Positions 29,384 to 53,199 of a DNA stretch of 64,000 nucleotides are shown one piece after another. Position 1 is the first letter of the stretch, and every line of letters begins with the position of its first letter. The notes beneath the pieces were generated by a model. That model saw only the letters and a program-made list of their open reading frames with translations. It did no database searches and was not told the DNA's origin. Origin of the DNA: a virus; the IMG/VR virus record IMGVR_UViG_3300045988_135095; one strand, 5' to 3'. Position numbers and translations under genes: made by a program.

Positions 29384-29525
29384 AATCTTTTATAATTTTA
29401 ATTGGTTCAACTTATAAGGTAGGCTCTGAATAGTCAAAAGTACTACCTTTATCTATATGCAAAGGTACGAAAATTTTCTGATATATGCAAATATACCAAT
29501 GATTATTTTAGTTAAAAATACTAAA
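29384..29525 (-). repeat. 142-bp promoter/leader cassette, copy A
   Basis: Near-identical to 38778..38919 and 53058..53199. Partial copies lie at about 47340..47462 and 33541..33610. Confidence 0.8.
29460..29491 (-). promoter_or_regulatory. promoter TTTG-N20-TACCTTTG (cassette A)
   Basis: Minus strand reads TATATTTGCATATATCAGAAAATTTTCGTACCTTTG. Confidence 0.6.
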
Positions 29526-30998: not shown

Positions 30999-31000
30999 CC

Positions 31001-31195
31001 ATGAGAAAGAAGAAGGAAGAAGAGAAACTGCACTTTTGCCGTGAATGTGCTCATGCTACTGACTTTCATAGTATGAGCCTTAAAGGTCAGCCTATCCTAG
31101 CCAAATGCCCATATCAAGAATGGAGCGTTCTTCTCAACTGGGATTGCTGCCAACACTTTAAAATGAAATTGTATGAAAAAGCCAAAACTGCCTAA
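31001..31195 (+). CDS. small Cys-rich protein
   Basis: 64 aa with CRECAH...CPYQ...CCQHF. GGAGGAA SD upstream. Confidence 0.35.
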   Translation: MRKKKEEEKLHFCRECAHATDFHSMSLKGQPILAKCPYQEWSVLLNWDCCQHFKMKLYEKAKTA

Positions 31196-32555
31196 TCAGA
31201 AAAAGGCATATAAAGACCTTGGCAAGAGACTGAACGCTTATACCCGGAAAATCATTTCCATATATGAGACTCTTGCCAAGGAGTCCGCTAAAATCGCCAC
31301 CTCCACCGACTTCGATGGGGATGGCGAGTTCTCTTTTGATGATTACCCTAGAACAGAAAGGAAGGTAAACGCCTTGTTGGATTACTATTCAAACAATATG
31401 CAGGCCTTGGTCTATAATGGCATATCGGACGAATGGAAGAATAGTAACACCCTGCAGGACCTACTTGCCAAAAGGGTAATCGGCACCTTTACTAGGAAGA
31501 TAGCGGACGCAAAGCAGAAAGCTTACTTTGAGCACAACAACGCGGCAAAGAAGGCTTTCATGGAGAGAAAGATTAAAGGTCTAGGTCTTTCAGAAAGAAT
31601 ATGGAACCAGAGAGCTGATGTAAAGGAGGCTCTGGAGAAATCTCTGTCTGTCGGCATAGAGAAGGGTATGAGTGCTGTTAAACTCAGCAAGAAGGTCAGC
31701 AAGTACCTTAATGATTATCCATCACTTGCCAAAGACTATAAGAAGAAATACGGCAAAGCCATAACTATTCAGAACTGCGAGTACAGAAGCGTTCGCCTGG
31801 CACGTAACGAGATAAACATGGCCTACCGTTCTGCCGAGCAAGAAAGATGGGCAAGGATGGACTACATTAAAGGCAAGGAAATAAAGACTACCAACAACCC
31901 AAGTCATAAGCACGATATGTGTGATTTGCTTGCAGGTGTCTATCCGAGTTATTTTCCTTGGGTTGGTTGGCACGTAAATTGTATGTGCTATGCCATCCCG
32001 GTAATAATGAGCGAGAAAGAGTATTGGAGTGGGAAACAGCCAAGCAATGCTATGCCTAAGAACTTCACAAATTGGGTGAATGACAATAAAGACAAGGTGA
32101 AGCAATCATCCTATATCACCCAATACGCTCGCTCTGAAAGGTCACAAAGGCAAGTTCGAATAGCTGCACAGAACTCACCAGAGGTGAGGGAAAGACTTCG
32201 AGAATTCATTAATGAGACAATGCAAACAAAATTTAAAGAGGTAGAGCTACCAGACGGTCAAACGGCTAGAAGGCTTTATCTCAATAATAATAATGAGGAA
32301 TTTGTGGTAGGACGAAATTTCTTTTCTGAAACGATGGCAAAGAATATTAGAAATAGAAGACTTAGCGAAACAATACAAATTGCAGCCGATGTAAACGAAT
32401 GGTTTCCTACAGCAACATTTGACAGGATTGAGGAAGGTAACCATCATGATTTTCAGTTCAAAGTATTCCATGCTACTTATCAAGGAAAACGAATAGAATG
32501 TAAGGCTAAACTTACAAGTGAAAATATCCTTTATACTATGAGATTACTAAACTAA
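31173..32555 (+). CDS. head morphogenesis protein (SPP1 gp7 / Mu F-like)
   Basis: 460 aa. VRLARNEINMAYRSAEQ resembles the Mu-F/gp7 core. Adjacent to the portal gene. Confidence 0.7.
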   Translation: MKKPKLPNQKKAYKDLGKRLNAYTRKIISIYETLAKESAKIATSTDFDGDGEFSFDDYPRTERKVNALLDYYSNNMQALVYNGISDEWKNSNTLQDLLAKRVIGTFTRKIADAKQKAYFEHNNAAKKAFMERKIKGLGLSERIWNQRADVKEALEKSLSVGIEKGMSAVKLSKKVSKYLNDYPSLAKDYKKKYGKAITIQNCEYRSVRLARNEINMAYRSAEQERWARMDYIKGKEIKTTNNPSHKHDMCDLLAGVYPSYFPWVGWHVNCMCYAIPVIMSEKEYWSGKQPSNAMPKNFTNWVNDNKDKVKQSSYITQYARSERSQRQVRIAAQNSPEVRERLREFINETMQTKFKEVELPDGQTARRLYLNNNNEEFVVGRNFFSETMAKNIRNRRLSETIQIAADVNEWFPTATFDRIEEGNHHDFQFKVFHATYQGKRIECKAKLTSENILYTMRLLN

Positions 32556-33624: not shown

Positions 33625-35373
33625 TTACGAATTTAATTTGTTGGAAATCAGAGAGTTAGATTTGAGGTAAGCGATAAACTTATCAAGCATTCTTGACGTT
33701 CGCTCTCTAATATCCGTTTCTGTAAAATCTGTCAACGTCTGTGACAGCATTCGTAATTCGTGTATCTTAGTTCCAATCCTCTCGCCTGTGGATTTGAACT
33801 CACCATTATAATACTTAATCTTGTCAGCAAATCTGTAATCGGATGCCCGAATATTAACTCTTCGCTCCAATACCGATTTGTTTCCCAACATTTCAAGAAC
33901 CTCGTCACTCGACAATCCACCTTCCTTGACTTGTCTGTTCCTTGGGAAGATGTGCTCAATGTCATATGTTGCGTCAAGAGGAAGCAATTCCTGGCTATCG
34001 AAAGAGAATGCCCACCACACAATCATCGACTTCGTAATCGCACGAGTGTTTGAAAAACTGAAGTTGGTAAATTGCGAACGGAACAATTCCTCTTGGAATA
34101 GATAGTTCTCGAAAGCAATCTCTTTGTTCTCTATGATATTCACCATCTCATTGAATACCGGTGCTCGCAAGGCTGTTATTCCTGGGTTGCTGATAGCATA
34201 TGCCCAAATAAAGCCTATCAAACGATTCAAGAACAAATAGAACTTCTCGTTGTCTAGCATATTCTCAGCATTCTTATAGTGCATGAAATATACTGATACG
34301 ATATATGTCCATAAACTGTTAGGCGCATAATTCAATACAAACAAGCGCTTTAGTACATCCACGGAAAAACGATCTTCGTTCTGAGAATATACATCTTTCC
34401 AGAAGTCCGCAAGCAAGACTAGATTCTCTAAAGTCTGCTCTCGTCGAAGTAGAACATATCCATCTTTCTCATAGAACTTACGAAGTCCTTCTGTCATAGA
34501 ACTACGATTAGTCAGCAATGCCCTCTCGTAGTACATATAGCGTGTAAACAACTCATCCAAAGGTGTTCCACGATATGGGTGGAATATTTTTGTAACGAGT
34601 TCGTCAAGCTCTTTCCATGTAGTGATAAACTCTTCCTTCTTTCCGATGGATGAGTAGAACTTATAGAGCTGTGCCTTGAAGATGTCTGAGTCAGACAATG
34701 GCTTACCTCTATCATTAAGCGTCGAGAATATCCTAAGAGCAGTATCTTGCGATTCTGCCTCTATTGGAAGTAGCACACAGTTATTGAGTATGCGAGCTGG
34801 ATATAATGCAAAGAAAGAAGGATATTCTTCAATGAATTTTCCTATCTTGTCTTGAAAGTATCTGAAGTTGGCAGCATACCGGCTTTTCCCTTCTGATGTT
34901 CCTTTCCGGAGTATATCCATAAACTCTTCCTTGTCGTTATCAGTTGCAACCTCCGAATTTATCTTCAAGTCGTTTGGATCATACTCTCCGAACTCATTTG
35001 CTCTCCAAATGCACTTTTCTATGTCCTCTCGCATCTTGATAGAACGATTGTCTTTCATGTGCTCCAGGCGATTGTAGAAAGCTCGCAGTAAGAGAAGCAA
35101 GGTCGTAAGACGCTGCTGACCGTCAATGATTTCAAGTTTCCCTTCGTCATTACGGAATGTTACTATAGGACCGAGAAAGTAACTCTCTGAAGAATCGAAG
35201 CTGTCGCAGTTGTTATTCGGGAATGAAAAGGAAAATAAGTCTTCCCATAAGACCTTACATTCGTCTTCTCCCCAAGCATACGGACGCTGATAATCAGGAA
35301 TCAAGAACGTAGCTTTTTTATCTTGAAAAAGATACTTTACGTTCTTTTGATCTACTATAAGCTTTGATGACAT
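33625..35373 (-). CDS. GmrSD-family DUF262/DUF1524 nuclease (type IV restriction-like)
   Basis: 582 aa. N-terminal IPDYQRPYAW and IIDGQQRLTTL (DUF262). C-terminal DIEHIFPRN...N His-Me finger (DUF1524). Confidence 0.8.
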   Translation of the reverse strand: MSSKLIVDQKNVKYLFQDKKATFLIPDYQRPYAWGEDECKVLWEDLFSFSFPNNNCDSFDSSESYFLGPIVTFRNDEGKLEIIDGQQRLTTLLLLLRAFYNRLEHMKDNRSIKMREDIEKCIWRANEFGEYDPNDLKINSEVATDNDKEEFMDILRKGTSEGKSRYAANFRYFQDKIGKFIEEYPSFFALYPARILNNCVLLPIEAESQDTALRIFSTLNDRGKPLSDSDIFKAQLYKFYSSIGKKEEFITTWKELDELVTKIFHPYRGTPLDELFTRYMYYERALLTNRSSMTEGLRKFYEKDGYVLLRREQTLENLVLLADFWKDVYSQNEDRFSVDVLKRLFVLNYAPNSLWTYIVSVYFMHYKNAENMLDNEKFYLFLNRLIGFIWAYAISNPGITALRAPVFNEMVNIIENKEIAFENYLFQEELFRSQFTNFSFSNTRAITKSMIVWWAFSFDSQELLPLDATYDIEHIFPRNRQVKEGGLSSDEVLEMLGNKSVLERRVNIRASDYRFADKIKYYNGEFKSTGERIGTKIHELRMLSQTLTDFTETDIRERTSRMLDKFIAYLKSNSLISNKLNS

Positions 35374-36349: not shown

Positions 36350-36505
36350 TTATTTCTTCTTGAATTTATAGTTTGGGCAGCTTCTCTTGTTTCCCATCAC
36401 AAGCAGTACCGGGAACAGCAGACCGTGCCTGCAACCATTTCCGTGCTCGTCAGCAGCCTCGCAAGAGAAGCAGCCGTAATACTCGTTAATATTTAATGCT
36501 GCCAT
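36350..36505 (-). CDS. small Cys-rich protein (51 aa)
   Basis: Manual translation MAALNINEYYGCFSCEAADEHGNGCRH... TAATG overlap with the ligase stop. Confidence 0.3.
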   Translation of the reverse strand: MAALNINEYYGCFSCEAADEHGNGCRHGLLFPVLLVMGNKRSCPNYKFKKK

Positions 36506-37299
36506 TATTCGTAATCCCTAATGTTCAACAATACTGGAAATCTCGGTACTCCAGCGTCAGAATACCCTTGATGCTGAACAGTCGCCGCCATACCTATCAA
36601 CTCGTCCTTATCGGCTAAGTATTGAGCTCTGAGTGACCTTGAACCTACCGGGCGGGCACAGAACTCGTACTCTCCACACTTCAGTTTGAATATAGCGGTA
36701 CCTGCATCATTGCCCTCCGCTTCCAAAACATCGACCACCTTGAACTCTGTCGTGTCGAACGATTTCAGCTTCATAAGGTCATTGCTTCTGCCCTCGGTAT
36801 ATGTTCCATCTGCATTTCTGATAATGGCACCCTCGTAACCGGTAGAAACGAATATCTTGTGCCATCGCTTGATGTCCTTCTCTGAATGGGCAACGAAAGT
36901 CTGCGTAAGGTACACCGGTCCGTTTGGATCAATGGAAGCAAACTCCTCCTGCAGAACTTTCCATCTGGCAGAAAAGCTTCCCGGAATCTGTGCATCGTAG
37001 ATAACCATGCGTAGCTTGTCGGTCATAGAAGAACGGCACTTGACGGCAGAGCATATCTGTTGGAAGGTCAATTCCTGATGGTTGTATATCTCCCCATCCA
37101 GAGGAAGCATACCGCGGTGTTTCTCTCCCCAAGCCTTAATCTGAGGAACATCATATTCCTTGCCACCTCTCGATGTGAGGTGAATCTCTCCGTCTTCTCC
37201 TTCATGAAGGATGCAACGAACTCCATCGTACTTAGGCTGGACGAAGCAAGGAAATTTCGTCTGTGACGGATAATATCTTGTTGCAAGCATTGGTTTCAT
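36505..37299 (-). CDS. ATP-dependent DNA ligase (minimal phage type)
   Basis: 264 aa with motif I VQPKYDGVR, EGAIIR and LMKLK. Confidence 0.85.
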   Translation of the reverse strand: MKPMLATRYYPSQTKFPCFVQPKYDGVRCILHEGEDGEIHLTSRGGKEYDVPQIKAWGEKHRGMLPLDGEIYNHQELTFQQICSAVKCRSSMTDKLRMVIYDAQIPGSFSARWKVLQEEFASIDPNGPVYLTQTFVAHSEKDIKRWHKIFVSTGYEGAIIRNADGTYTEGRSNDLMKLKSFDTTEFKVVDVLEAEGNDAGTAIFKLKCGEYEFCARPVGSRSLRAQYLADKDELIGMAATVQHQGYSDAGVPRFPVLLNIRDYE

Positions 37300-38777: not shown

Positions 38778-38919
38778 AATCTTTATAATTTTAATTGGTT
38801 CAACTTGCAAGGTAGCTCCTGTATATCCAAAAGTACTACCTTTTATCTATATGCAAAGGTACGAAAATTTTCTGATATATGCAAATATACTAACGATTAT
38901 TTTAGTTAAAAATACTAAA
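38778..38919 (-). repeat. 142-bp promoter/leader cassette, copy B
   Basis: Aligns end to end with copies A and C. Confidence 0.8.
38854..38885 (-). promoter_or_regulatory. promoter TTTG-N20-TACCTTTG (cassette B)
   Basis: Core identical to cassette A. Confidence 0.6.
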
Positions 38920-38999: not shown

Positions 39000-40478
39000 T
39001 TACAAGAAACCGCCACGTCGGAGCTGTGCATCGGTAGCATTGTTAAGCCACTCCTCGCACTTCTCTATGATGCCCGTACAAGCGTCCGGCGCATCATCGT
39101 GGGCGTTATATCCTTCCTTTCTGTAGGATTTCATATCGTGGGCGAACTCCGGCCACAACTGTTCCCAATTAGAAGGGAAGACTAGTTTATTGTTTACCTC
39201 GCTGGAGCGAGTGAATATTCTAATCTGTTTGTTCTTCGATTGCGTGAACGTTACGAACTGGGTAATTCTGTTTCCGTGTTCCCTTGTTATGCGCTCGACA
39301 TTGCGGGCGTAAGAGCGTCCACCATTGTTACTTTCAACGAAACACACGTCTGTCTGATTGCGCTTAACCATATTGGCTTGCGCTGGTTCCGTGTATTCCA
39401 TCGGTCGCTTAGTGTATAGAACATCGGTAACATAGTAGCCGTCATCGTGTGCATCGAAGCATATAGAGCAAAGGAAGTCGAAACCGGTATCTGCCGAGTC
39501 TGTGTAGTTGCCAATCATTCTTGCATACCTTCTGTCCGGCAGCTCATCGTATGTTCTGAAGGCATGGTACATAAGACCTTCCATAGGGGTAGGGTTCTGC
39601 ATGTACTGTGTCTCAAATACGAACTCGCTGGCATGCTTGATTTTATACAGCTCCTCCAGCGTATGCTTCCACGGCCACAAGGCTCGCTCCTTTCCGTCCT
39701 CGTCTGTCTGTATTACCGGGAGGGAAACAACCTTCCACTCATTCGGCTCAATCTCTTGAAGGTAACCGCACAAGTCGTGCTCGTGCAACCTCTGCATGAC
39801 GATGATAATTGGCGTATGACGTGAGTTTACACGGTTACGGATGGTTGTCTCGAAACGTCTGTTGATAGACTCTCTGACGTTATCGGACAAAGCATCGTCC
39901 GGTCGTAAAGGGTCATCGATAACTATGGCTCCCGAAAAGTGACCGGGGTTGAACGTAGCCATGAACTTATCCATGTTCTTTATGTCTTCTTCGGTCCAGT
40001 CTGGCTGACCTGCACCAAAACCTGTGATCTGACCCAAGGTAGATGTAGCATACTCACCACCACCTGCCGTTGTGCTCCATTTTGATCTTGTGTTATCGTT
40101 CTTTCTGATTTTGACATTCGGAAATAGTGTTTGAAAATATGTAGAAGTTATCGTGTCCTTGACTGCCATTGAGTTGTCCTGGACGAGACTTCCGGAATAA
40201 GATATATGAAGAAACTTTGAAGCAGGGTTCAGCGCAAGACCATATGCGATAAACATCTGTGAACACAAGAGTGTCTTTCCATAACGAGGGCTGATGTTGA
40301 TAATCAGCTTGTTAGTCTTTCCCCTTATCACATCCATGAGCGCATCACATATAATCCTGTGATGTTCGCCTATTACATACTCACGTCGAGCAGTATAGGC
40401 GAACATCTTAGTAGTGAATTGCAGCAGGGACGATGCCACTAACTGCTTATGAAGAAAACGTTGTTTCTCAAAGTCCAT
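39000..40478 (-). CDS. terL: terminase large subunit
   Basis: 492 aa with Walker A ISPRYGKT, Walker B AIVIDDP and a C-terminal nuclease-like acidic motif. Preceded by a small-subunit gene. Confidence 0.85.
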   Translation of the reverse strand: MDFEKQRFLHKQLVASSLLQFTTKMFAYTARREYVIGEHHRIICDALMDVIRGKTNKLIINISPRYGKTLLCSQMFIAYGLALNPASKFLHISYSGSLVQDNSMAVKDTITSTYFQTLFPNVKIRKNDNTRSKWSTTAGGGEYATSTLGQITGFGAGQPDWTEEDIKNMDKFMATFNPGHFSGAIVIDDPLRPDDALSDNVRESINRRFETTIRNRVNSRHTPIIIVMQRLHEHDLCGYLQEIEPNEWKVVSLPVIQTDEDGKERALWPWKHTLEELYKIKHASEFVFETQYMQNPTPMEGLMYHAFRTYDELPDRRYARMIGNYTDSADTGFDFLCSICFDAHDDGYYVTDVLYTKRPMEYTEPAQANMVKRNQTDVCFVESNNGGRSYARNVERITREHGNRITQFVTFTQSKNKQIRIFTRSSEVNNKLVFPSNWEQLWPEFAHDMKSYRKEGYNAHDDAPDACTGIIEKCEEWLNNATDAQLRRGGFL

Positions 40479-41004
40479 TTATCTTCTGTAATTCTTTAAT
40501 ATCATCCAAGGACAGCTTAGGGAACTTGAAGTCCTCGCCATCCTTGCCGGTTACTTCTTGAATATGCTTATCTGCCAATCCGTTGAGCCTTGCAACAATA
40601 CTGGAATCAAACTGATGAAGCATGGCGCCATCAATTTGCTGAGCCATCACGACATTCTCAATCTGTGTTATCACCTGCTCAAAGCCTGGTCTCTTAAGAT
40701 TACCTCTCTTGAAATCCGCCCATTTCTGAACGATGCCACAGAAAGCACAAAATCCGACAAGGGTATAGGCTCTTCTGAAAACCCTTACCTCTTGTCTCAT
40801 GGAATTTGTGGATTTGCCGCTGCCGCCTGCAATGGAGTTGCTACCAGTCTTTTGCTGCCAAGGGTCATTTTCAACATCATCACAGTAAGCTACAAACTTA
40901 TCCCATAATTCCTGAGAAGACTTAATCTTGTATGGTCTTCCAACAGGATTGGGGATTCTATGTACGAAAGACTTTACTTTCGGCTGTGATGATTCATCTG
41001 TCAT
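40468..41004 (-). CDS. terS: terminase small subunit
   Basis: 178 aa. GRPYKIKSSQELWDKFVAYCD is typical of small terminase N-termini (from memory). 11-nt overlap with terL. Confidence 0.5.
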   Translation of the reverse strand: MTDESSQPKVKSFVHRIPNPVGRPYKIKSSQELWDKFVAYCDDVENDPWQQKTGSNSIAGGSGKSTNSMRQEVRVFRRAYTLVGFCAFCGIVQKWADFKRGNLKRPGFEQVITQIENVVMAQQIDGAMLHQFDSSIVARLNGLADKHIQEVTGKDGEDFKFPKLSLDDIKELQKINGL

Positions 41005-41618
41005 GGTTTCTTAACTTTTACTAGTTTACCGCAAGCGGAACAATTATACTCATAATACTCTGAAGGCTTGACCTGGATATTCTCCTCAACGCCCTTCATT
41101 TCCTCCTTGAACTTCTGGTCCTTCTGGGCTTCCGTTACGACCTTCTTAGCCGTATGGTTAGTCTCAGCCTTGGAAGGTGCGGCCGCAGGTTTCTGTTCCT
41201 TTGGCTTAGCGTTGAGTCCAAGCATACCGGCAATGCTCTCATCGAAAGCAAACTGAATGCTGTTAGGATCACCGAGATAGGAGAGCTCCTTGCGAAGCTT
41301 CTTCTCGTTCCAAGTGGCAAACTCGGACGTCTTGTCATCAGCGATTCTATACTGCTTAATCTGCTCATCAGTCAGATAGTCAACACGGATGCATGGAACC
41401 TTATCCATTCCCAATGCCTTAGCAGCCTTATACACACCGTTACCGGTTACAATCACGTTGTTCTTATCAACGGAAATAGGCTGAGTGATGCCGAAATCCT
41501 TGATGGACTGCATGATTGCCTGTACTGCCGTCTCGTCGGTCTTGTGCGAACCGTCATGAGGCACGATACTGTCAATAGGTAACTCAATTACCTTGTCATT
41601 AATCTTAATCTCTTCCAT
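41001..41618 (-). CDS. ParB N-terminal-domain protein with C-terminal CxxC tail
   Basis: 205 aa. LPIDSIVPH...ITQPISVDKNNVIVTGNGVYKAA has ParB/Srx-fold character. Ends with YNCSACGKLVKV. ATGA overlap with terS. Confidence 0.6.
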   Translation of the reverse strand: MEEIKINDKVIELPIDSIVPHDGSHKTDETAVQAIMQSIKDFGITQPISVDKNNVIVTGNGVYKAAKALGMDKVPCIRVDYLTDEQIKQYRIADDKTSEFATWNEKKLRKELSYLGDPNSIQFAFDESIAGMLGLNAKPKEQKPAAAPSKAETNHTAKKVVTEAQKDQKFKEEMKGVEENIQVKPSEYYEYNCSACGKLVKVKKP

Positions 41619-41623
41619 ACCTG

Positions 41624-42259
41624 TTAATCCTCAATTTCTATTGTTTCCATATTTCCGCAATATGGGCAAACGACCTTCATATAATGTGAACCGTCCTCGC
41701 GCTCTTTGAGAACGAACAAATCCTTGGCAGGGTCCTCCTCCTCATCATCTGAAGAAGCTTCCTCGCTTTCGCCAGCCTCTTCATTGGATGGAGCCTCGAA
41801 GTTCTCCTCATCAACCTGAGAATAGTCATCCTGGAAGCCACCATACTCTTCTGCCTGCTGATTGATGCTGTCGAGGGAGAAGTTGAGCATCTGGTTGATA
41901 TCCTCAAAGAAGAATGCCTGCATATCGGTAGGAACCTCCATGTTGCGCAATTCCTCCAAAAGCTGGTCTTCATCAAAGGAAGATTTCTCTGCCAGCTTGT
42001 TATCGAGGATGCGGTACTTCTTTGCCATTTCGTCGTCCATATCCGAGTAAACGACAGGAACGAACTCCATACCCAACTGGTAAGCGGCCACGTATCTTGT
42101 GTGACCGGCAATGATTACACCTGCCTTATCAACGAGGATAGGCTTAACGAATCCAAAACGCTTGATACTCTCCTTCGTAGGCTCAACCGCATTCGTGTTG
42201 TCACGAGGGTTGTCATAGTAAGGAAAGATTTCACTGAGCTTAACTGACTTTACTTTCAT
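41624..42259 (-). CDS. ParB N-terminal-domain protein with acidic linker and C-terminal CxxC tail
   Basis: 211 aa with FVKPILVDKAGVIIAGHTRYVAA and a SEEASSDDEEED linker. Ends with VVCPYCGNMETIEI. Confidence 0.65.
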   Translation of the reverse strand: MKVKSVKLSEIFPYYDNPRDNTNAVEPTKESIKRFGFVKPILVDKAGVIIAGHTRYVAAYQLGMEFVPVVYSDMDDEMAKKYRILDNKLAEKSSFDEDQLLEELRNMEVPTDMQAFFFEDINQMLNFSLDSINQQAEEYGGFQDDYSQVDEENFEAPSNEEAGESEEASSDDEEEDPAKDLFVLKEREDGSHYMKVVCPYCGNMETIEIED

Positions 42260-42918
42260 TTCTTATCCTCCTTCTTCTTGGCTGTCTCTCTTGCTACGCG
42301 TCTCTCGTCGACAACCTTTTCGATAGCCGCATTATACTTATAGCTCTTGAAAATCTTGGCGAAACCGGTAACATACTTAAGTTTTACAAGCTCTTTCTGC
42401 TCCAGACCTACCTTTTCGCAAATCTCACGCTCAGATACACCATCTCTGAGCATATTGAAGACGATGTTTACCATTCCATCTACAGAGTGACTTCCACGGG
42501 CACGATTATGTCTTACGGTTGATGCCATACGCTGGTCGATGTCCTTGTCTAGAACTACGATAGGCAGCTTTCCGCCACATCGCTCATTGATGTCCGCAAA
42601 CTTGCGAATAACGAGGTTTCTGTGGAAACCGTCGATGATTACATACTTCTGCAGCTTCTCGTCCCAAATGGTAACGATAGGCATAGTGTAACCGTCTTCC
42701 CTCACGGATGTATAGAGAAGACGCATTTCCTTATCTGCCACATGGTTAGGGTTGTAGTTGTTGGCTACAACCATATCCTTGTCAACCCAAAGCACGCAAT
42801 CTACAGGGTTGACTTTCTCTGGAGATAAGGAACTGATATACTTTCTGAGGTCGTTCAAAAACTGCACCTTATCCTTGGCAGCATCAAACTCCTTCTTGAT
42901 GTTCTCTTGAAGATTCAT
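42256..42918 (-). CDS. IbrB-like ParB/sulfiredoxin-fold protein
   Basis: 220 aa with NYNPNHV, IIDGFHR and RHNRARG motifs. ATGA overlap downstream and a 35-nt overlap with the PP-loop gene. Confidence 0.65.
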   Translation of the reverse strand: MNLQENIKKEFDAAKDKVQFLNDLRKYISSLSPEKVNPVDCVLWVDKDMVVANNYNPNHVADKEMRLLYTSVREDGYTMPIVTIWDEKLQKYVIIDGFHRNLVIRKFADINERCGGKLPIVVLDKDIDQRMASTVRHNRARGSHSVDGMVNIVFNMLRDGVSEREICEKVGLEQKELVKLKYVTGFAKIFKSYKYNAAIEKVVDERRVARETAKKKEDKK

Positions 42919-44077
42919 ATTCCTTATTAGCTTTTTCTATTTTAACATAATTGTCGCTCAAATACTGACGCAAAGAACGCTCTACGCTCTGAATGCGCTT
43001 CATTCCGAAATCTTCCGCAATGACGCAGACAGCGCTGGTATAACCAATCTGATGTATTACGTAATCAATACACTCCTGGCAATGCCCGGCTTTAGCTACA
43101 TTCCTCTTCTTGGCAGAACGGTAGCCTTTCTTGATAGTCTCCGCATTCTTCTTGTCTTCACAAAGATTGTCTGCGAGATAATCAACGTATTCATCCCAAT
43201 CCTTGAAATAAGGTGGCAAATTGTAGCAGTATGTTGCTATTTCGTTAAATACGTGTACAGACGTATTGACGTTTGCAACTCTTCGTACCAACTTGTCGTA
43301 GAACCATGGATCCACTTCCTTAATGAAACCTAAGTCGTGGATAGCCTGCTCATGGATGAGGGAACTTACTCGGCACGCTCTGAGTGGCTTCTGCGTGAAC
43401 TGATAGTTATAAAGCTTACAGTACGGAAGCTTGTTGCTGAAGATGTAATACCATACATCATAAACCTTCCAATCCCAAATAGGGTAGAGCACCAGACTTC
43501 TCGGTGTGCCGTCTTTATAATATCCGCCACCACCTCCCCACGTAATACCTGGAAGGCACTCACCTCTAGTAAGACCCGACAATCGTGCCGGCGACTCCTC
43601 GATACGGACACCACCTAAAGTTAGGTAGTCTTTGCCGAAGAGCATTCTGTGTACCTGATCAAGGGTCTTGGAGAAATACTGATTGTGCGGAATCTCCAAA
43701 TCACCATATGAATCTGGTTCCTTCTCACGAATCCACTTTTCTCCTGGCCCCCATACATTGAACCATTCTCCCTTTGAGGCATTCCATTCCTGGAAGTATG
43801 ACTGAATCCAATACGGCTCAACCCACGGCAAGTGCATGATGTATCGTATGTACTCGATAGTCATTGGAGTCTCTGCCTCTTGGTCTAGGAAGAGGACGGG
43901 AATCTTTTCAATTCCCATCTCCTTCATAACCTCGTGCGCAAGGTTGAGAACCACGGTAGAGTCCTTTCCTCCCGACATCGTCACGACAATCTTACGCTTA
44001 CCATAAAACTCCCGAAAGATGTATCTGAATCTTTCAAGAGCTGCCTCATAAACGTTTTTGTCACTGTAAAATATCAT
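42884..44077 (-). CDS. PAPS-reductase-type PP-loop ATPase (IbrA/DndC-like)
   Basis: 397 aa with PP-loop VVTMSGGKDSTVVL and a long C-terminal extension, as in IbrA-size proteins. Confidence 0.75.
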   Translation of the reverse strand: MIFYSDKNVYEAALERFRYIFREFYGKRKIVVTMSGGKDSTVVLNLAHEVMKEMGIEKIPVLFLDQEAETPMTIEYIRYIMHLPWVEPYWIQSYFQEWNASKGEWFNVWGPGEKWIREKEPDSYGDLEIPHNQYFSKTLDQVHRMLFGKDYLTLGGVRIEESPARLSGLTRGECLPGITWGGGGGYYKDGTPRSLVLYPIWDWKVYDVWYYIFSNKLPYCKLYNYQFTQKPLRACRVSSLIHEQAIHDLGFIKEVDPWFYDKLVRRVANVNTSVHVFNEIATYCYNLPPYFKDWDEYVDYLADNLCEDKKNAETIKKGYRSAKKRNVAKAGHCQECIDYVIHQIGYTSAVCVIAEDFGMKRIQSVERSLRQYLSDNYVKIEKANKEYESSREHQEGV

Positions 44078-44529
44078 TTCTTTCTATTGTTTAATAATAC
44101 CTTGTCGCTGGAATTACTGAAATGGGTGTCAAGGTAATTCTTAAGCCTACCCATCATTTCATTATTGTTGTGGCCGCGAGCGGCATTGTGCATGATTGTT
44201 GCATATCTCAACTTCTCTTCGTCGAAGTCAACGAAGCATACAGGAACCATCTCATATCCGATGACGCAGGCGGCGCGGTATCTGTTCTCTCCGTCAACAA
44301 TCTGCATCGTCGAGCGGTTGACAACGATAGGCTGAGTAAATCCGAAATAGAGCAACGATTTGATGAGAAGGTCGAAGCTGTCTGCATCATGCGTGTTAGG
44401 GTTATAGTCATTCGGATAAATGTCATCAACCTTGACGTATTCAATATGCAACGGCTTCACCTGCTCAACCTCGATATTGTCCTTTGCCAATTTCAAGGCT
44501 AGATTTTCCTTAGAGTTTTTTGTATTCAT
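44074..44529 (-). CDS. short IbrB-like ParB/sulfiredoxin-fold protein
   Basis: 151 aa with DYNPNTH, IVDGENRY and HNAARG motifs. ATGA overlap with the PP-loop gene. Confidence 0.6.
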   Translation of the reverse strand: MNTKNSKENLALKLAKDNIEVEQVKPLHIEYVKVDDIYPNDYNPNTHDADSFDLLIKSLLYFGFTQPIVVNRSTMQIVDGENRYRAACVIGYEMVPVCFVDFDEEKLRYATIMHNAARGHNNNEMMGRLKNYLDTHFSNSSDKVLLNNRKK

Positions 44530-45244
44530 CGAGAAATTCCTTGTTTACGATTTCCTTAACCCAATCCTTGCTTGACTTAGCCAAATAAGGATTCTTGAAC
44601 TCACTCTCCCAATCTACAGACTCAACATCAAACTGGTTGTCGTAGGTCTTACTGTTTCTAGGAATGCCACCTACGGCGCCTGGATTGTTGAACGTGCTTC
44701 TGTATGCACCGAAATGCTGAACCAGACCGGGAACGATAGCGTAAAGGTCGATACCCTTTGCTTGAAGGTATGCCTTAAGGCGCGAATCATCATAACGTGT
44801 CTGATCATCCGTCATCTTGTTTGAAGTTTCAACAAAGTCCTTGGCTAGGTCATTTGGATATACGCTAGCCTGCAGCCAGAAATTAGTCTTTGTAGAAATA
44901 ACGTGCTTGCCCTTTGCGTAACAATCAGTATAGTCACCATTTGTTGGATTGTAGAAACTGATAACGTTGTTTTCGGGAGCAAAAGAGAGAATATGTAAAA
45001 TCTTGGCAAGAATGTTGCGGTCAAAGGTAATGTCATCGTGAATAACCATGCGATGGGTTCCTTCCGCTACCTCTTGCGTCAACGCTTGGGAATAATTGTC
45101 CCAAAGACCCTTACCTCGGTCCATAGAGATACTGACAGGAATGCCATAAGGCTTCGTGCTAGTCTCTATCAACTTCTTAAGGTATTTGCCCTCACGTTCT
45201 CGCTTCGGAACGTTGAGGATGATAATCTGAGAGAGTTTAATCAT
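44510..45244 (-). CDS. GT-A-like glycosyltransferase candidate
   Basis: 244 aa. The N-terminus IIILNVPKREREGKYL and VIHDD (DxD-like) resemble GT25/GT2-type transferases. Weak call. Confidence 0.35.
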   Translation of the reverse strand: MIKLSQIIILNVPKREREGKYLKKLIETSTKPYGIPVSISMDRGKGLWDNYSQALTQEVAEGTHRMVIHDDITFDRNILAKILHILSFAPENNVISFYNPTNGDYTDCYAKGKHVISTKTNFWLQASVYPNDLAKDFVETSNKMTDDQTRYDDSRLKAYLQAKGIDLYAIVPGLVQHFGAYRSTFNNPGAVGGIPRNSKTYDNQFDVESVDWESEFKNPYLAKSSKDWVKEIVNKEFLDEYKKL

Positions 45245-45252
45245 ATGCGTAA

Positions 45253-45912
45253 TTATTTAGTTACTGTCCATTCTCCACCTCGCTTGGCAATCTTGCTGAT
45301 GGCTACTGCCAAACGGTTTCTGTTCATATCGCTACCATAGAAAACCTTACCTGCGTCATAGGCTGCTTGGGCAACAAGTCCTTGACCCATGAAGAAGTCT
45401 GTGATAGAACTGAACGGAACATCCTTACAAATCTTGAACACCGCATCCCATTCATCCATACCCTGGAGCCCCCAGTCTTCTGCCTGCTTGGTGCCTTGGA
45501 TAATCCAGCACTTGCAATCTGGCTTATGATAATAGGTGTTCTCGTAGATTTTTACATGAGGAAACAGCGATTCTACCATAGGAACCAATTGGTTCTTGTT
45601 TCGATAGAAGCACTCGACGAATAGTCTGTCCGGGTTAATCTGCTCGATGCACCTCTTGATGTGGGCAACGAACTCGTCAAAATTATCAACCGGGCATTGC
45701 TTCTCCGCCTTAGTATAATACGCTTTGAGGACGCCTTTACTTCCTGCCGGGTCGATGAATACGCAATCGGCATTCTTCGAAAACTCCGGAAGCCCCAAAG
45801 TAATATCGGCAATGGTAATCTTGCTACCATTGCCTAAACTGTAAATCTCGCCTTCTGTGATGGGGTATTTATCAATACTGCCATCATAACGCAAACCTTT
45901 CTGTGATGTCAT
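45253..45912 (-). CDS. beta-class (permuted) DNA methyltransferase-like protein with DPAG in place of DPPY
   Basis: The ATG at 45912 forms an ATGA overlap. Motif-IV position reads VFIDPAGSKG. C-terminal motif-I-like FFMGQGLVAQAA...YGSDMNRNRLAVA. Confidence 0.5.
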   Translation of the reverse strand: MTSQKGLRYDGSIDKYPITEGEIYSLGNGSKITIADITLGLPEFSKNADCVFIDPAGSKGVLKAYYTKAEKQCPVDNFDEFVAHIKRCIEQINPDRLFVECFYRNKNQLVPMVESLFPHVKIYENTYYHKPDCKCWIIQGTKQAEDWGLQGMDEWDAVFKICKDVPFSSITDFFMGQGLVAQAAYDAGKVFYGSDMNRNRLAVAISKIAKRGGEWTVTK

Positions 45913-46451
45913 ACGCAATTTACTATTAAATAATTGTGATACTCTGATACGTTTTCTTCACCAAAAAGACTGCACAAGACCTTCTTTGAATAGAAAAAAT
46001 GTCTGAACTCCACATCACACTTCTCATAAGTGACCGGATGATATTTCTCCTTGTAGAACATCAAGAACTTGCGAGCCTTGCACTGCGATATTGCCAGAAC
46101 GGCATAACGGGAAAGATAAGATGGGGAACCGAACAATGCTACGATATTCTCGAAATTCCTGCAATCTAAACTCTTTCCGTCGAAAGGCTCACATACAACC
46201 CTATCCTTATAGGCTGGGTATTTGTTAGTGAACTGCTCCAACATTCCTTTACTAGGATCAATTCCTAGATATTCCTGTGGGTCGATTTTTGCAATCTCTG
46301 TCAGCAAGCCGGTACCACATCCGATGTCTAGGATTGAACCGCTGAGAGGTGGGAGCATTTGCCCCACCTCACGGTTCTCAACGAGACTCATTTCATCACG
46401 AAACAAAGTGTCGTACTTACTTGCTATTTTATCATACTGGGAATAATTCAT
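45909..46451 (-). CDS. class I SAM-dependent methyltransferase
   Basis: 180 aa with motif I ILDIGCGTGLLT. Confidence 0.7.
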   Translation of the reverse strand: MNYSQYDKIASKYDTLFRDEMSLVENREVGQMLPPLSGSILDIGCGTGLLTEIAKIDPQEYLGIDPSKGMLEQFTNKYPAYKDRVVCEPFDGKSLDCRNFENIVALFGSPSYLSRYAVLAISQCKARKFLMFYKEKYHPVTYEKCDVEFRHFFYSKKVLCSLFGEENVSEYHNYLIVNCV

Positions 46452-47277
46452 TTTCTACTGTTGCCTGTTGCCAGGTGATTTTTTTACTTGAAATGGTTAC
46501 GAAATTCTTGTGATTGTATATGTTACAATTCGGGAACATCGATTTCAACTGCATTCTGTCATAGGTGAAATGGTGCATTTCCTCGAACTCTGCAGGGGTG
46601 TAGTCATCCTTGTAGAACATAAGGCAATAATCCAAACCACTCTCGCCCAGTTTGCGGAGATACTGAGGCATGAAGTAGGAAGCGGTACCGAAAAGAGCAA
46701 CCACAACGCTGTCTGCCGACATCCATTTCTTTATCGCCTCCTCAAAAGAAATAGTAGAACATCTTCGGAAAAAACCAGAGGTCTTCTCCCTGAACTGCTT
46801 GATTGCTTTCTTGCTAGGATCAACTCCATAATACATTTCCGGCTTTATCTTGGTGAAAGCGACGAAGTCTCCGTTTCCGATGCCTGCCTCGAAAAATCTT
46901 CTGTCCTTGAACGTGAACATGATAGATTTTGCCATCACGTCCATTTCCTGATTCGAATAGATTCGCGGTACCGGCCACTCCAGGAAGTCGAACTCGTTGA
47001 AAACCTTCTGTCTGTTCAAAATCCAAGTAGTCTCGAATGGGTCACCCATCGTCCAATACTTGTAACCATCAATGTAAAGGTAAGGGAAATTATACTTCCC
47101 CCATCTTTCATGGACTCCATTGTCTCGCTGTGCGCTGACGAAGTAATAGAACTCGTCGTTTGTCAATGCGCACTTGTCTCTGTGAATGTACTCATGAGGA
47201 ACGTCTATCATTGAAGTGGCCCATTGCCACTTACAACGCTTGATGAACTCTCTGAGCTTACTGTAATCGTATTCCAT
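46432..47277 (-). CDS. methyltransferase paralog with extra N-terminal domain
   Basis: The C-terminal half (EAGIGNGDF...VVALFGTASYF...LMFYKDDY) parallels the product of 45909..46451. The N-terminal ~120 aa (WATSMIDVPHEYIHR) is unassigned. Confidence 0.5.
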   Translation of the reverse strand: MEYDYSKLREFIKRCKWQWATSMIDVPHEYIHRDKCALTNDEFYYFVSAQRDNGVHERWGKYNFPYLYIDGYKYWTMGDPFETTWILNRQKVFNEFDFLEWPVPRIYSNQEMDVMAKSIMFTFKDRRFFEAGIGNGDFVAFTKIKPEMYYGVDPSKKAIKQFREKTSGFFRRCSTISFEEAIKKWMSADSVVVALFGTASYFMPQYLRKLGESGLDYCLMFYKDDYTPAEFEEMHHFTYDRMQLKSMFPNCNIYNHKNFVTISSKKITWQQATVENELFPV

Positions 47278-47313: not shown

Positions 47314-47408
47314 TCTAAAATCTAAAATTAACTATATTTTAACATAAAATTGTGCATATATGCGGCTTGGATAGTCAAAAACACCGCAAAATAGGCTCTT
47401 CTCATACG

Positions 47409-47440
47409 CAAAGGTACGAAAAAATCTCGATATATGCAAA
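47409..47440 (-). promoter_or_regulatory. promoter TTTG-N20-TACCTTTG (cassette D)
   Basis: Minus strand reads TATATTTGCATATATCGAGATTTTTTCGTACCTTTG. Confidence 0.55.
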
Positions 47441-47477
47441 TATATCAAACGGAAATTTTAGCCAAAAATACTAAAAA

Positions 47478-48749
47478 TTACGCCGTTCTACTAGCCCTGT
47501 TTGGGAGCCTGGATTCTATCTGCCACAGATTATCTTTGATAAGCTTCAGAATGGTATCGTGAAAAGCGGAATTGATGTTTCCGTGGCCCTGGCATTGAAC
47601 AACGGTAACATCGGCTAAGTTTACCTCGATTGTCTCCATACGCTGCCCGTTTACCTTGGCAGAAAGTATGAGGCAGTTCGGCTTTCTGTTCACATCGTAA
47701 TAACGATTCCTAAATACACAGTGCCCCATTTCCTTGCCCTCTTCAAAGAACTCCTGGACGGACTTAAGAACCTGTATGTCTATGGCGCCATCCTTTATGT
47801 CAATGTCAAAGAACTGCTTTCTTCTGTCAACATATACATTAGCCATTGCTTCTGCCTTTTTCTTATTCTCCTCTTCGGCTTTAGCAGCTTGCTCCAGATA
47901 TCTGAGTTGCATTTTCTCTTCCGCAATCAGACGCAGCTTAGTCATTCTGTCCTCCATTTTCTTTTTCTTGTTGTCTGCTGCCTTTAGCCACTTGTCGTGC
48001 GCCTCACGAAGATTCTCCGGGCAAACTATAGAAGGGTTACGTACATCTTTCTTAAGATACATAATACTGTCGAGCATATCCCACCACAAGCTATCGTAAA
48101 TATAAGAAGCCTTTCCGTGTCTGACAACAATCTTGACGGCAGACATTTTTTCTCTGTCGAAGACAGCTTCATGGTACTTACACACCTTCCACATATCAAT
48201 ATCACGTCTCATGAGAGTTTCATTGTATGGGTTAGCATTGACGGAACGGAAGATTTCGTCACACAGAATCTTTTCCCCGAAGTCTCTGAGAGCATATTTA
48301 TACTTGCCTTGGACTGAAGCGTAATATACTCCATCGAATCCAATATCACGAGGATCACCCAAGAAACTCCATACAGTATGCGTTCTTACTTCCAACTTTC
48401 CGAAAGCAGAAAAAGCATCTTCTATATATCCGCTGGTTCGCTGCCTGGCAAGGAAAACATATTCCCCATCTTTCAACCATTGCTGCATACACTCCTTGAA
48501 GTAAATCTTCTCCTTAATCATCTTGTGGAACCGGAACTTCGCTCTTACCTGAAAGTATCTGAGGACCTGCCATCCCTTGAATGTGCATACTAGATAGAAA
48601 CACCCTCTTGAAAATCTGTCACCATACTTGTAGGCATCATCTTCAGAGATGCAAGTCTTGATGGCCCACTCACGCTGTTTGTCTGATAACTCCGGAATTC
48701 TGTCCGAGAGTTTTACAACTTTACGTTCTGTCTTATTTCTTGGCTTCAT
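47478..48749 (-). CDS. PcfJ-like protein
   Basis: 423 aa. The C-terminal EEGKEMGHCV and the overall size resemble PcfJ-like proteins (from memory). Confidence 0.55.
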   Translation of the reverse strand: MKPRNKTERKVVKLSDRIPELSDKQREWAIKTCISEDDAYKYGDRFSRGCFYLVCTFKGWQVLRYFQVRAKFRFHKMIKEKIYFKECMQQWLKDGEYVFLARQRTSGYIEDAFSAFGKLEVRTHTVWSFLGDPRDIGFDGVYYASVQGKYKYALRDFGEKILCDEIFRSVNANPYNETLMRRDIDMWKVCKYHEAVFDREKMSAVKIVVRHGKASYIYDSLWWDMLDSIMYLKKDVRNPSIVCPENLREAHDKWLKAADNKKKKMEDRMTKLRLIAEEKMQLRYLEQAAKAEEENKKKAEAMANVYVDRRKQFFDIDIKDGAIDIQVLKSVQEFFEEGKEMGHCVFRNRYYDVNRKPNCLILSAKVNGQRMETIEVNLADVTVVQCQGHGNINSAFHDTILKLIKDNLWQIESRLPNRASRTA

Positions 48750-48759
48750 AACTCACATA

Positions 48760-49194
48760 TTAAAAATCAAACAAACTCAACTGACCAATCTCAGCATCTT
48801 TCTTTCTCTGAGCCTCGGCTTTCTTCTTCAAGCGCTCCTTCTCAGCGGACTCCTTCTTCTGGAGTTCGATGATTTTGGCTTGCTTGAATTCCTCCTCAGC
48901 CTTCTTCTCCAGATTCTCCTTGGTCTGGTCTGAGAGATTTGTAACAATGGTGCAATTCTGATTCTTGGTGAATGAAACTTCTTCTTCATTATAATAGTGA
49001 ATTGCAATTCCATAAATCTCATCATCGTCAAACCCCTGTCTTCCGGATTTCTTGACCTCTGAGATAATAAAGTCGCAGCAGTCATCGATATTCTTGCCAG
49101 GCTTGGCGTAATCCTTTGCGAACAATTCATCCTCTGCTGCACGCTTGTCAAGATATGCCTTGATTATCTTCTTGAATGTTTCTGATCCTTTCAT
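48760..49194 (-). CDS. PcfK-like protein
   Basis: 144 aa. FKKIIKAYLDKRAAEDELF... plus a Lys/Glu-rich tail. Directly upstream of the PcfJ-like gene. Confidence 0.5.
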   Translation of the reverse strand: MKGSETFKKIIKAYLDKRAAEDELFAKDYAKPGKNIDDCCDFIISEVKKSGRQGFDDDEIYGIAIHYYNEEEVSFTKNQNCTIVTNLSDQTKENLEKKAEEEFKQAKIIELQKKESAEKERLKKKAEAQRKKDAEIGQLSLFDF

Positions 49195-53057: not shown

Positions 53058-53199
53058 AATCTTTATAAATTTAATTGGTTCAACTTGTAAGATAGGCTCT
53101 GAATAGTCAAAAGTACTACCTTTTATCTATATGCAAAGGTACTAAAATTTTCTGATATATGCAAATTTACCAACGATTATTTTAGTTAAAAATACTAAA
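53058..53199 (-). repeat. 142-bp promoter/leader cassette, copy C
   Basis: Aligns end to end with copies A and B. Confidence 0.8.
53134..53165 (-). promoter_or_regulatory. promoter TTTG-N20-TACCTTTG (cassette C)
   Basis: Core spacing matches cassettes A and B. Confidence 0.6.

Follow-up and report, generated by a model that had tools for sequence, protein, structure and literature searches.

What is the function of a row of nine genes that runs directly into the terminase genes of a phage? The question is raised by the IMG/VR virus record IMGVR_UViG_3300045988_135095, analysed here as a stretch of 64,000 nt (the window). On its minus strand, at 47277..41001, lie nine co-oriented open reading frames (ORFs), named g1 to g9, whose positions in the first-pass annotation are confirmed by the ORF list. 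They encode, in turn, two class-I S-adenosylmethionine (SAM) methyltransferases (g1 and g2, the first with an extra N-terminal domain, here called nd), a homologue of DNA methyltransferases (g3), a predicted glycosyltransferase-like protein of GT-A fold (g4), a short ParB_N protein (g5), the IbrA/IbrB pair (g6 and g7) and two further ParB_N proteins (g8 and g9), after which come terS and terL. Comparison with other loci resolves the cluster into a conserved core (IbrA, IbrB, two ParB_N proteins, terS and terL) and variable accessories, g1 to g5. The whole may be a late, packaging-coupled DNA-modification module, probably of anti-restriction type, built on phage IbrA/IbrB; this is the reading preferred here, and it is held tentatively, at somewhat less than an even chance.

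The IbrA/IbrB pair and the conserved core

The product of g6 (42884..44077, minus strand), earlier described as a PP-loop ATPase of the 3′-phosphoadenosine-5′-phosphosulfate (PAPS) reductase type, is of that type and can be named more closely as IbrA, an ATP pyrophosphatase that matches PF01507 (PAPS_reduct, E = 9e-17), PF11922 (DUF3440, 1.4e-5) and phrog_2302 (4e-67) and carries the PP-loop SGGKDST. The adjacent and co-oriented g7 (42256..42918, minus strand), rightly called IbrB-like, encodes a ParB/Srx-fold protein that matches phrog_2159 (1e-62), contains the motifs NPN (as NYNPN), DGFHR and RHNRARG, and has a helix-turn-helix (HTH)-like segment at its C-terminus. Its profile matches the N-domains of ParB, Noc and Spo0J; weaker matches are to SbnI and SerK, which are kinases of ParB/Srx fold. 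The enterobacterial IbrA/IbrB proteins belong to the same families, PAPS_reduct with DUF3440 beside a ParB-like protein with the NPN, DGFHR and RHNRARG motifs, and each recovered IbrA has an adjacent IbrB; compared with that pair, the window phage adds three ParB_N paralogues, a GT-A protein, three methyltransferase-like proteins and the coupling to terS and terL. IbrA and IbrB were named two decades ago for activating prophage gene expression, which is a genetic phenotype. No mechanistic study of the pair was found in the literature searched, and the papers found either leave its function open, describe it as a factor of virulence or regulation, or class it as an auxiliary metabolic gene (AMG) of sulfur metabolism. 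Genes of IbrA/IbrB type are common in phages, with 223 carriers among the roughly 50,700 records of cultured phages.

The reaction class of IbrA can be narrowed by its cysteines. Among 31 diverse IbrA sequences (33-82% identical to g6), the motifs SGGKDST, DQE, EES..R and P..DW are conserved and no cysteine is invariant. CysH is defined by a catalytic cysteine in its C-terminal part (ECGLH-type). DndC is defined by a PP-loop, a three-cysteine 4Fe-4S site and a cysteine dyad (PMC10853773). Therefore, IbrA is neither of DndC type nor of CysH type. The names that these genes bear in databases suggest an ordinary AMG, that is, a PAPS reductase of sulfur assimilation, accompanied by ParB partition proteins for the maintenance of a prophage or plasmid, and phage PAPS reductases are routinely called sulfur-metabolism AMGs (10.1101/2021.07.29.453957, PMC12323421, PMC10434257). 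This explanation has a negligible probability: the cysteine with which CysH catalyses is missing from IbrA, which has a DUF3440 domain and is almost always accompanied by IbrB; no ParA is seen among the domains found, the ParB_N proteins are truncated and stand within a late operon, and apparently lytic phages have this module too. The cysH models cover about 35 residues of g6, far below the cut-off, and with a match of this length and no conserved cysteine, a CysH-type AMG is essentially excluded. Canonical ParABS partition was also rejected, since the ParB_N proteins are truncated, with g5 only 151 aa long and g8 and g9 ending in an acidic tail and CxxC where a C-terminal dimerisation domain would be expected, no ParA domain was found among the window proteins scanned, and a search for parS-like palindromes at 36-50 kb gave none that was convincing and no repeated palindrome. 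IbrA/IbrB-type genes are routinely mis-annotated as sulfur-metabolism AMGs or as partition genes.

ParB-like partners are known to work with DNA-modifying enzymes, as in DndB/DndC and DpdB/DpdA (PMC10853773, PMC12839542). Modules of ParB/Srx and PP-loop proteins associated with DNA modification are of an already known kind. The first-pass annotation had likened g6 and g7 to DndB/DndC. As regards architecture the likeness stands, for in Dnd, as also with SspD and the BrxP protein of type-4 BREX, a ParB/Srx protein and a PP-loop ATP pyrophosphatase of the PAPS-reductase family act on DNA; as regards chemistry it does not, because IbrA has no invariant cysteine and so lacks the residues of the Fe-S site and of the cysteine dyad. 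Phosphorothioation of the Dnd/Ssp kind, with IbrB as DndB, IbrA as DndC and host IscS as sulfur donor, is accordingly very improbable. A DGxHR ParB/Srx protein does stand beside a PAPS-reductase-family PP-loop ATPase, and the N-terminal PP-loop region of g6 is weakly matched by the DndC, SspD and BrxP models, but these matches span residues ~26-81 only and fall far below the cut-off, whereas DndC needs both the Fe-S site and the dyad (PMC10853773). In addition, g7 gives no match to the DndB or DGQHR models; DndA, DndD (an SMC-like ABC ATPase) and DndE were not found in the window ORFs scanned; and the partners of the pair here are a glycosyltransferase-like protein and methyltransferases rather than sulfur-mobilising enzymes. 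With the defining cysteines absent and no full-length match to DndB or DndC, Dnd-type phosphorothioation is essentially excluded.

Two other pathways were compared. In the Dpd system, which inserts 7-deazaguanine, the ParB-like ATPase DpdB assists the DNA-modifying enzyme DpdA (PMC12839542), and to this extent it resembles the present cluster; a tRNA-guanine transglycosylase (TGT/DpdA) or preQ0 genes were, however, not found in the ORFs scanned, and the partner here is a PP-loop enzyme. Glucosylation of the T-even type starts from a deoxynucleoside monophosphate hydroxymethylase, a thymidylate-synthase homologue, which was also not found in the ORFs scanned, so that glucosylation of hydroxymethylcytosine (hmC) type was rejected; the glucosyltransferases of T4 are of GT-B fold, whereas g4 is of GT-A type. 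The earlier statements that Dnd, TGT/DpdA and hydroxymethylase genes are not seen, and that the cluster fits no described pathway, are both upheld: none of these genes occurs in the 20 other larger ORFs (the small ORFs were scanned in part), and membership of the Dnd, Dpd and hmC-glucosylation pathways fails in each case.

To see which genes belong together, 102 dereplicated loci with full-length IbrA were assembled from viral contigs, GTDB genomes, metagenomes and annotated phages; the GTDB loci came from a profile search, single-protein patterns being too specific and finding none. In 99 of the 102, a gene of IbrB type lies in the same orientation as IbrA and no more than 5 kb from it. Extra ParB_N genes are present in 48 loci, nd in 29, g3-type methyltransferases in 27, g4-type GT-A proteins in 16 and g1/g2-type methyltransferases in 15. 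Of the 54 loci that make up the window's nearest clade, 45 combine the pair with one or more of the accessory families. Linkage to terL was recorded in at least 17 of the 102 loci, which is a lower bound because few seed families were used; iterated terL detection gave 28 ORFs. The enterobacterial chromosomal loci (ybdNM-type) carry the pair alone.

The order IbrA-IbrB-ParB-ParB-terS-terL recurs in divergent Bacteroidota-type phages and in phages of Actinomycetota and Bacillota. Mycobacterium phage Gadjet has ParB as gp1, IbrA as gp4, an IbrB-like protein as gp5 and terL as gp6; in Arthrobacter phage Laroye the order is ParB, ParB, IbrA, ParB, methyltransferase, HTH protein and terL; and Bacillus phage 031MP003 has ParB, IbrA, methyltransferase and, further on, ParB at its right end and terS-terL at its left end. 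The closest parallel is Microbacterium phage Hendrix, where gp154-158 and gp1-5 repeat the architecture gene for gene. At its right end stand a g4-like glycosyltransferase, a second glycosyltransferase, an nd-methyltransferase, a GNAT protein and IbrA, and at its left end an IbrB-like gp1 (7.6e-72), two g8/g9-like ParB genes, terL and a DNA ligase. Hendrix differs from the window in its actinobacterial host, in the second glycosyltransferase and the GNAT gene, in having no g3- or g5-type genes, and in an IbrA that is 36% identical. The view that the nine genes form one indivisible pathway has to be given up: g1 to g5 are missing from phages whose IbrA is 44% identical and are reshuffled among near relatives. 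Conservation of the gene neighbourhood across phages holds for the core, which is found in three phyla, but not for the variable g1 to g5. In Flavobacterium phage FCL-2 the IbrB/IbrA pair is located between terL and the portal gene, and is preceded by an SNF2-related protein of ~400 aa (gp07, locus L002, 4145-5356); in phage 1H the corresponding position is taken by an uncharacterised protein of ~400 aa.

As the core occurs without glycosyltransferase or methyltransferase, it must have a function of its own. This could mean that two functions share one late operon, the core serving packaging or late-gene control while g1 to g5 are independent accessories in a permissive insertion site; a ParB-type clamp might, for example, label the concatemer in the vicinity of pac, or compact it there, to prepare it for the terminase, or might switch on late transcription. 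Such a division is unlikely, although several features agree with it: the core is found without any transferase, in phages of three phyla it immediately precedes terS or terL, the IbrB-like ParB of Gadjet sits exactly at the expected position of terS, and the accessory content differs among close relatives. What it leaves unexplained is the role of a PP-loop ATP pyrophosphatase and the specific co-occurrence of the families. Members of the nd, g3 and g4 families accompany IbrA/IbrB also at loci with no terminase detected in the vicinity, as in the IbrA-IbrB-g3 triplets of loci L098, L213, L214, L220, L223 and L225, and the g4 family is not found outside this cluster context. Besides, a bona fide terS is also present in the window (40468..41004, minus strand; P22 gp3-type small terminase, GP3_package 8e-14).

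The accessory genes and their fusions

The first accessory, g1 (46432..47277, minus strand), had been taken for a methyltransferase paralogue with an extra N-domain, and this agrees with the alignment, in which residues 91-263 of its product match g2 at 27% identity (E = 3e-18). Residues 1-95 make up nd, a domain of ~95 aa with the motif W.WAKTM..PHEY...YLYIDGYKYWTMG...NR, which is also found as a standalone protein of ~95 aa. The domain has no Pfam, PHROG or PDB-sequence match, and a homologue search with a 97-aa query returned fragments only. In the predicted structure of g1 (mean predicted local distance difference test score, pLDDT, 57) the N-domain alone is confident, and Foldseek gave no significant match. 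The sequences of g1, g3 and g4 gave nothing useful against PDB, and g1 and g4 had no tblastn match in the cultured-phage collection. The second gene, g2 (45909..46451, minus strand), is a class-I SAM-dependent methyltransferase, as had been proposed, with the motif ILDIGCGTG and matches to Methyltransf_25 (1e-7), Methyltransf_12 and Methyltransf_11.

The third, g3 (45253..45912, minus strand), is a homologue of the small beta-class N6/N4 DNA amino-methyltransferases. Its family comprises 211 representative clusters with the consensus motif IV DPPW and motif I D.C.GRGL; Pfam N6_N4_Mtase (PF01555) is matched by 25 of 53 members, and the family profile matches DpnA, CcrM, MboIIA and RsrI. The earlier assignment to beta-class DNA methyltransferases is right as to family homology and as to the SAM-binding motif I, which g3 keeps as DFFMGQGL, but the canonical catalytic motif has been replaced by DPAG. 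Judged by this replacement, g3 would therefore be either inactive as an amino-methyltransferase or repurposed.

For g4 (44510..45244, minus strand), the GT-A-like call is borne out by structure prediction. The AlphaFold model (pLDDT 89.7) has a GT-A fold, and Foldseek retrieves GT-A/GT25 enzymes with E-values down to 5e-7 in PDB and 2e-13 in BFVD, the nearest structures being GT25-like viral enzymes including Hendrix gp154; g4 is thus a predicted glycosyltransferase-like protein of GT-A (GT25-like) fold. A GT-A-type fold is common also to sugar-nucleotide pyrophosphorylases. The family has the invariant motif HxxxxxDD at residues 64-71, in which the invariant D70 and D71 answer to the acidic DxD-type motif that follows a beta-strand in GT-A enzymes, and consists of 43 database clusters, none with a Pfam domain. 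All six distinct contexts of the family that were looked up (6/6) lie within an IbrA/IbrB-type cluster, and in each a short ParB gene directly follows.

In the window this short ParB gene is g5 (44074..44529, minus strand; phrog_498, 7.6e-24), which always comes after g4-type genes and encodes a ParB_N-only protein of 151 aa with the motifs GENRYRAA and HNAARG. Pfam also supports the ParB_N identification of g8 (41624..42259, minus strand; phrog_620, 6e-42) and of its paralogue g9 (41001..41618, minus strand; phrog_620, 1e-39). The arginine of the NTP-binding box (GERRxRA-type in canonical ParB) is kept in g5 (GENRYRAA) and g8 (GHTRYVAA), whereas the Box-II arginine is lost in g9 (TGNGVYKAA) and g7 carries DGFHR instead. 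Both g8 and g9 have an acidic low-complexity linker and a single C-terminal CxxC. What g5, g8 and g9 most resemble is the ParB_N part of phage ParB-DNA-methyltransferase fusions (phrog_498; PADLOC MTase_II PDLC03229), genes that typically lie beside the terminase. Compared with such fusions, the methyltransferase here is separate and has DPAG, and g8 and g9 end in the acidic tail and CxxC instead. In locus L087 a canonical DPPW methyltransferase of the g3 family lies between the short ParB gene and IbrA, directly after the former, which is like a split ParB-methyltransferase fusion.

The accessory families are joined to one another in several fusion proteins. P0281 unites nd with a g3-type methyltransferase (DPPW), P0243 a g4-type GT-A domain with a g3-type methyltransferase (DPPY), and P0175 a g3-type methyltransferase with GNAT; P0179 is a tandem g3-like protein, and nd is joined to a class-I methyltransferase in both g1 and Hendrix gp156. 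Fusions of this kind suggest that the nd, GT-A, methyltransferase-like and GNAT components share one substrate or complex. The accessory enzymes would then act on a common substrate, most simply DNA, because DNA adenine/cytosine methyltransferases are among the homologues of the g3 family. No description of the cross-phylum IbrA-IbrB-ParB-terminase architecture, of the nd domain, or of the linkage and fusion of GT-A, nd and methyltransferase was found in the literature searched.

The same enzymes could, however, serve the virion instead of its DNA: g1 to g4, possibly with an adenylylated donor made by IbrA, might place a methylated sugar on virion proteins or on another non-DNA acceptor. Some mycobacteriophages (Che8-like) glycosylate their capsids and tails by means of cassettes of glycosyltransferase and O-methyltransferase genes. 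These cassettes lie near the packaging end of the genome and are not known to be associated with IbrA/IbrB or ParB. The right-end glycosyltransferase of Ardmore is among the best BFVD neighbours of the GT25-like g4, g1 and g2 are most similar to small-molecule and O-methyltransferases, the genes are co-expressed with those of morphogenesis, and small-molecule adenylyltransferases are the nearest solved relatives of IbrA. Yet the glycosyltransferase family of g4, like nd, is fused or linked to homologues of DNA methyltransferases, in which it differs from the Che8-like cassettes; a ParB_N gene accompanies g4 in every case; and four ParB/Srx proteins would have no obvious role in protein glycosylation. 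Glycosylation of the virion is for these reasons considered quite improbable.

The accessories also vary from locus to locus. An extra g3-like paralogue of 197 aa (SEPAW) stands directly upstream of IbrA in seven close relatives, L063 (7411-8004), L043, L066, L067, L069, L070 and L080. Among them, L063 is without g4 and has remnants only of g5. L084 has three further glycosyltransferase-like paralogues, two recognised by the g4 profile and one of 185 aa by motif only, and no g3. The variation of L063, L084 and L087 indicates that transferases are exchanged for one another in the slot upstream of IbrA, a pattern typical of arms-race modules, whose genes are in conflict with host defences.

Transcription unit and proposed function

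A single promoter cassette had been reported upstream of g1, and a Bacteroidota-type element is indeed present there, in the 200-nt gap 5′ of the gene (cassette 47404..47442, element 47408-47440, minus strand; TTTG/TAccTTTG match). It has the form TTTG-N21-TACCTTTG, with TTTG at -33 and TAccTTTG at -7, and is the sole promoter-like element between the PcfJ gene and g1. It is the second of four near-identical minus-strand copies of a 39-nt cassette, TTTGCATATATC...GTACCTTTGC, at 53129-53167, 47404-47442, 38849-38887 and 29455-29493; the number of copies expected by chance is 0 (100 shuffles). The third copy (38849..38887, minus strand), which opens the next unit, comes directly after terL (39000..40478, minus strand), so that g1 to terL can be read as one transcription unit, bracketed by two promoter copies and with terL as its final gene. 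A scan for sigma-70 promoters and terminators gave no enrichment over shuffles, the model not being applicable to Bacteroidota promoters. Over the whole window, the four copies divide the minus-strand genes into four units.

The genes of the unit are tightly packed. Overlaps of 4-35 nt had been claimed throughout and are found at most junctions, namely g1/g2 (20 nt), g2/g3 (4), g4/g5 (20), g5/g6 (4), g6/g7 (35), g7/g8 (4) and g9/terS (4), but g3 and g4 are separated by a gap of 8 nt and g8 and g9 by one of 5 nt; terS and terL overlap by 11 nt. The four ATGA overlaps that had been quoted are all present. For g3 the ORF list gives a TTG start at 45918, and it is the ATG at 45912 that yields the ATGA overlap. 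When g1 to g9 are compared with the relatives L062, L069 and L072, the most divergent of the group, the nonsynonymous divergence (dN) is 0.03-0.30 and the synonymous divergence (dS) is saturated, which indicates that the cluster genes are real and selected. The ratio dN/dS is 0.01-0.03 where computable, with g6 and g7 under tighter constraint than terL; all nine genes are under strong purifying selection. In the phage group of the window, IbrA is found at 94-100% identity in at least 80 viral contigs, and the cluster is kept in every contig that reaches far enough, with L063 as the sole exception.

A late DNA-modification module coupled to packaging, as preferred above, could work in the following way. 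IbrB (g7), with its ParB/Srx fold and HTH-like segment, would bind the DNA of the phage, perhaps after being loaded close to the packaging genes, and would recruit or license IbrA. The cysteine-less PP-loop ATP pyrophosphatase IbrA (g6) would activate a target group by adenylation; its motifs and nearest relatives suggest adenylyl transfer or ATP-pyrophosphatase activity on some acceptor. The lineage-variable transferases, here g3, g4, g1 and g2, would then install or tailor an adduct, with g5, g8 and g9 acting as adaptors or regulators. One promoter serving g1 to g9 together with terS and terL would cause the DNA to be marked just before or during packaging. What is observed is the structure of the genes, their domains, the purifying selection, the unit between two promoters, the synteny across phyla, the co-occurrence and the fusions; in this scheme we infer the DNA substrate, the adenylation, the order of the steps, the loading of IbrB and the anti-restriction role. 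The first-pass proposal, a pathway of several steps that modifies DNA or counters restriction at the time of packaging, is plausible, and is backed by co-occurrence, fusions and co-transcription with terS and terL, but it is unproven.

Several observations weigh against this scheme. The case for modified virion DNA is genomic and indirect. The nearest solved relatives of IbrA, the FMN-adenylyltransferase domain of FAD synthase and CysD, adenylylate small molecules; the class-I methyltransferases g1 and g2 belong to the small-molecule/O-methyl type; and motif IV of g3 is DPAG in 76 of 76 orthologues, not the catalytic (D/N/S)PP(Y/F/W). The structural neighbours of g4 include, with GT25 enzymes, the right-end glycosyltransferase (gp87) of the Cheoctovirus Ardmore, and members of Cheoctovirus glycosylate their virions. 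Phages with an IbrA 44% identical to g6 keep IbrA-IbrB-ParB-ParB-terS-terL without glycosyltransferase or methyltransferase, and phages of S. thermophilus hold IbrA/IbrB away from the terminase.

A broader claim can be formulated, and it is doubtful: IbrA/IbrB may represent a widespread, cross-phylum system of packaging-coupled DNA hypermodification, in which a ParB-type DNA clamp limits a reaction that depends on adenylation to the genome of the phage itself, and swappable transferases (GT-A, nd-methyltransferase, methyltransferase-like and GNAT) build the adduct on canonical bases or backbone without a hydroxymethyl-nucleotide precursor. If true, it would explain the 'prophage gene activation' phenotype of IbrAB as a consequence of DNA modification. 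Should the DNA be marked, this would be a new class of phage DNA modification and of anti-restriction chemistry, and would bear on the host range of gut phages, on sequencing artefacts and on enzyme tools. What had been a vague operon is now a defined system with core, accessories and fusions, and its cultured carriers (Hendrix, Gadjet, Laroye, Bacillus 031MP003 and FCL-2) allow direct testing.

Source phage and neighbouring genes

The window is from a gut Bacteroidota-type phage genome. Its terL is 49% identical to that of Bacteroides fragilis phages, and its replication module includes DnaB, a helicase loader, NinB and NinG; the DNA of the cluster has no close match among cultured phages. 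PcfJ-like and PcfK-like genes (47478-49194, minus strand) lie immediately upstream of the cluster, and their position, together with that of DpnD-PcfM, is kept in relatives. The PcfJ and PcfK families are known from conjugative elements.

The unit downstream of terL contains a gene for a type IV, that is, modification-dependent, restriction endonuclease of the GmrSD family (33625-35373, minus strand; GmrSD_N 1e-41, GmrSD_C 4e-8), which is notable for a phage that may modify its own DNA. An ATP-dependent DNA ligase is encoded shortly downstream of terL (36505-37299, minus strand), and a ligase is found at the equivalent place in the close relative L088 (14645-15430) and in Hendrix (L254, 5429-6466).

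Further along the window, an SPP1-type portal gene (29583-30998) and a 460-aa ORF (31173-32555) are on the plus strand, against the surrounding strand. Both GC skew and AT skew switch sign over this region (29583-32555, plus strand), which could be an inversion or a divergent unit. The segment 18000-28000 has 33-40% GC, compared with 44-49% in 2-18 kb, and contains many short ORFs; it is perhaps accessory DNA or a recent acquisition. In a related phage (L089, 11576-15145), terL encodes a protein of 1189 aa with an intein and LAGLIDADG homing-endonuclease domains.

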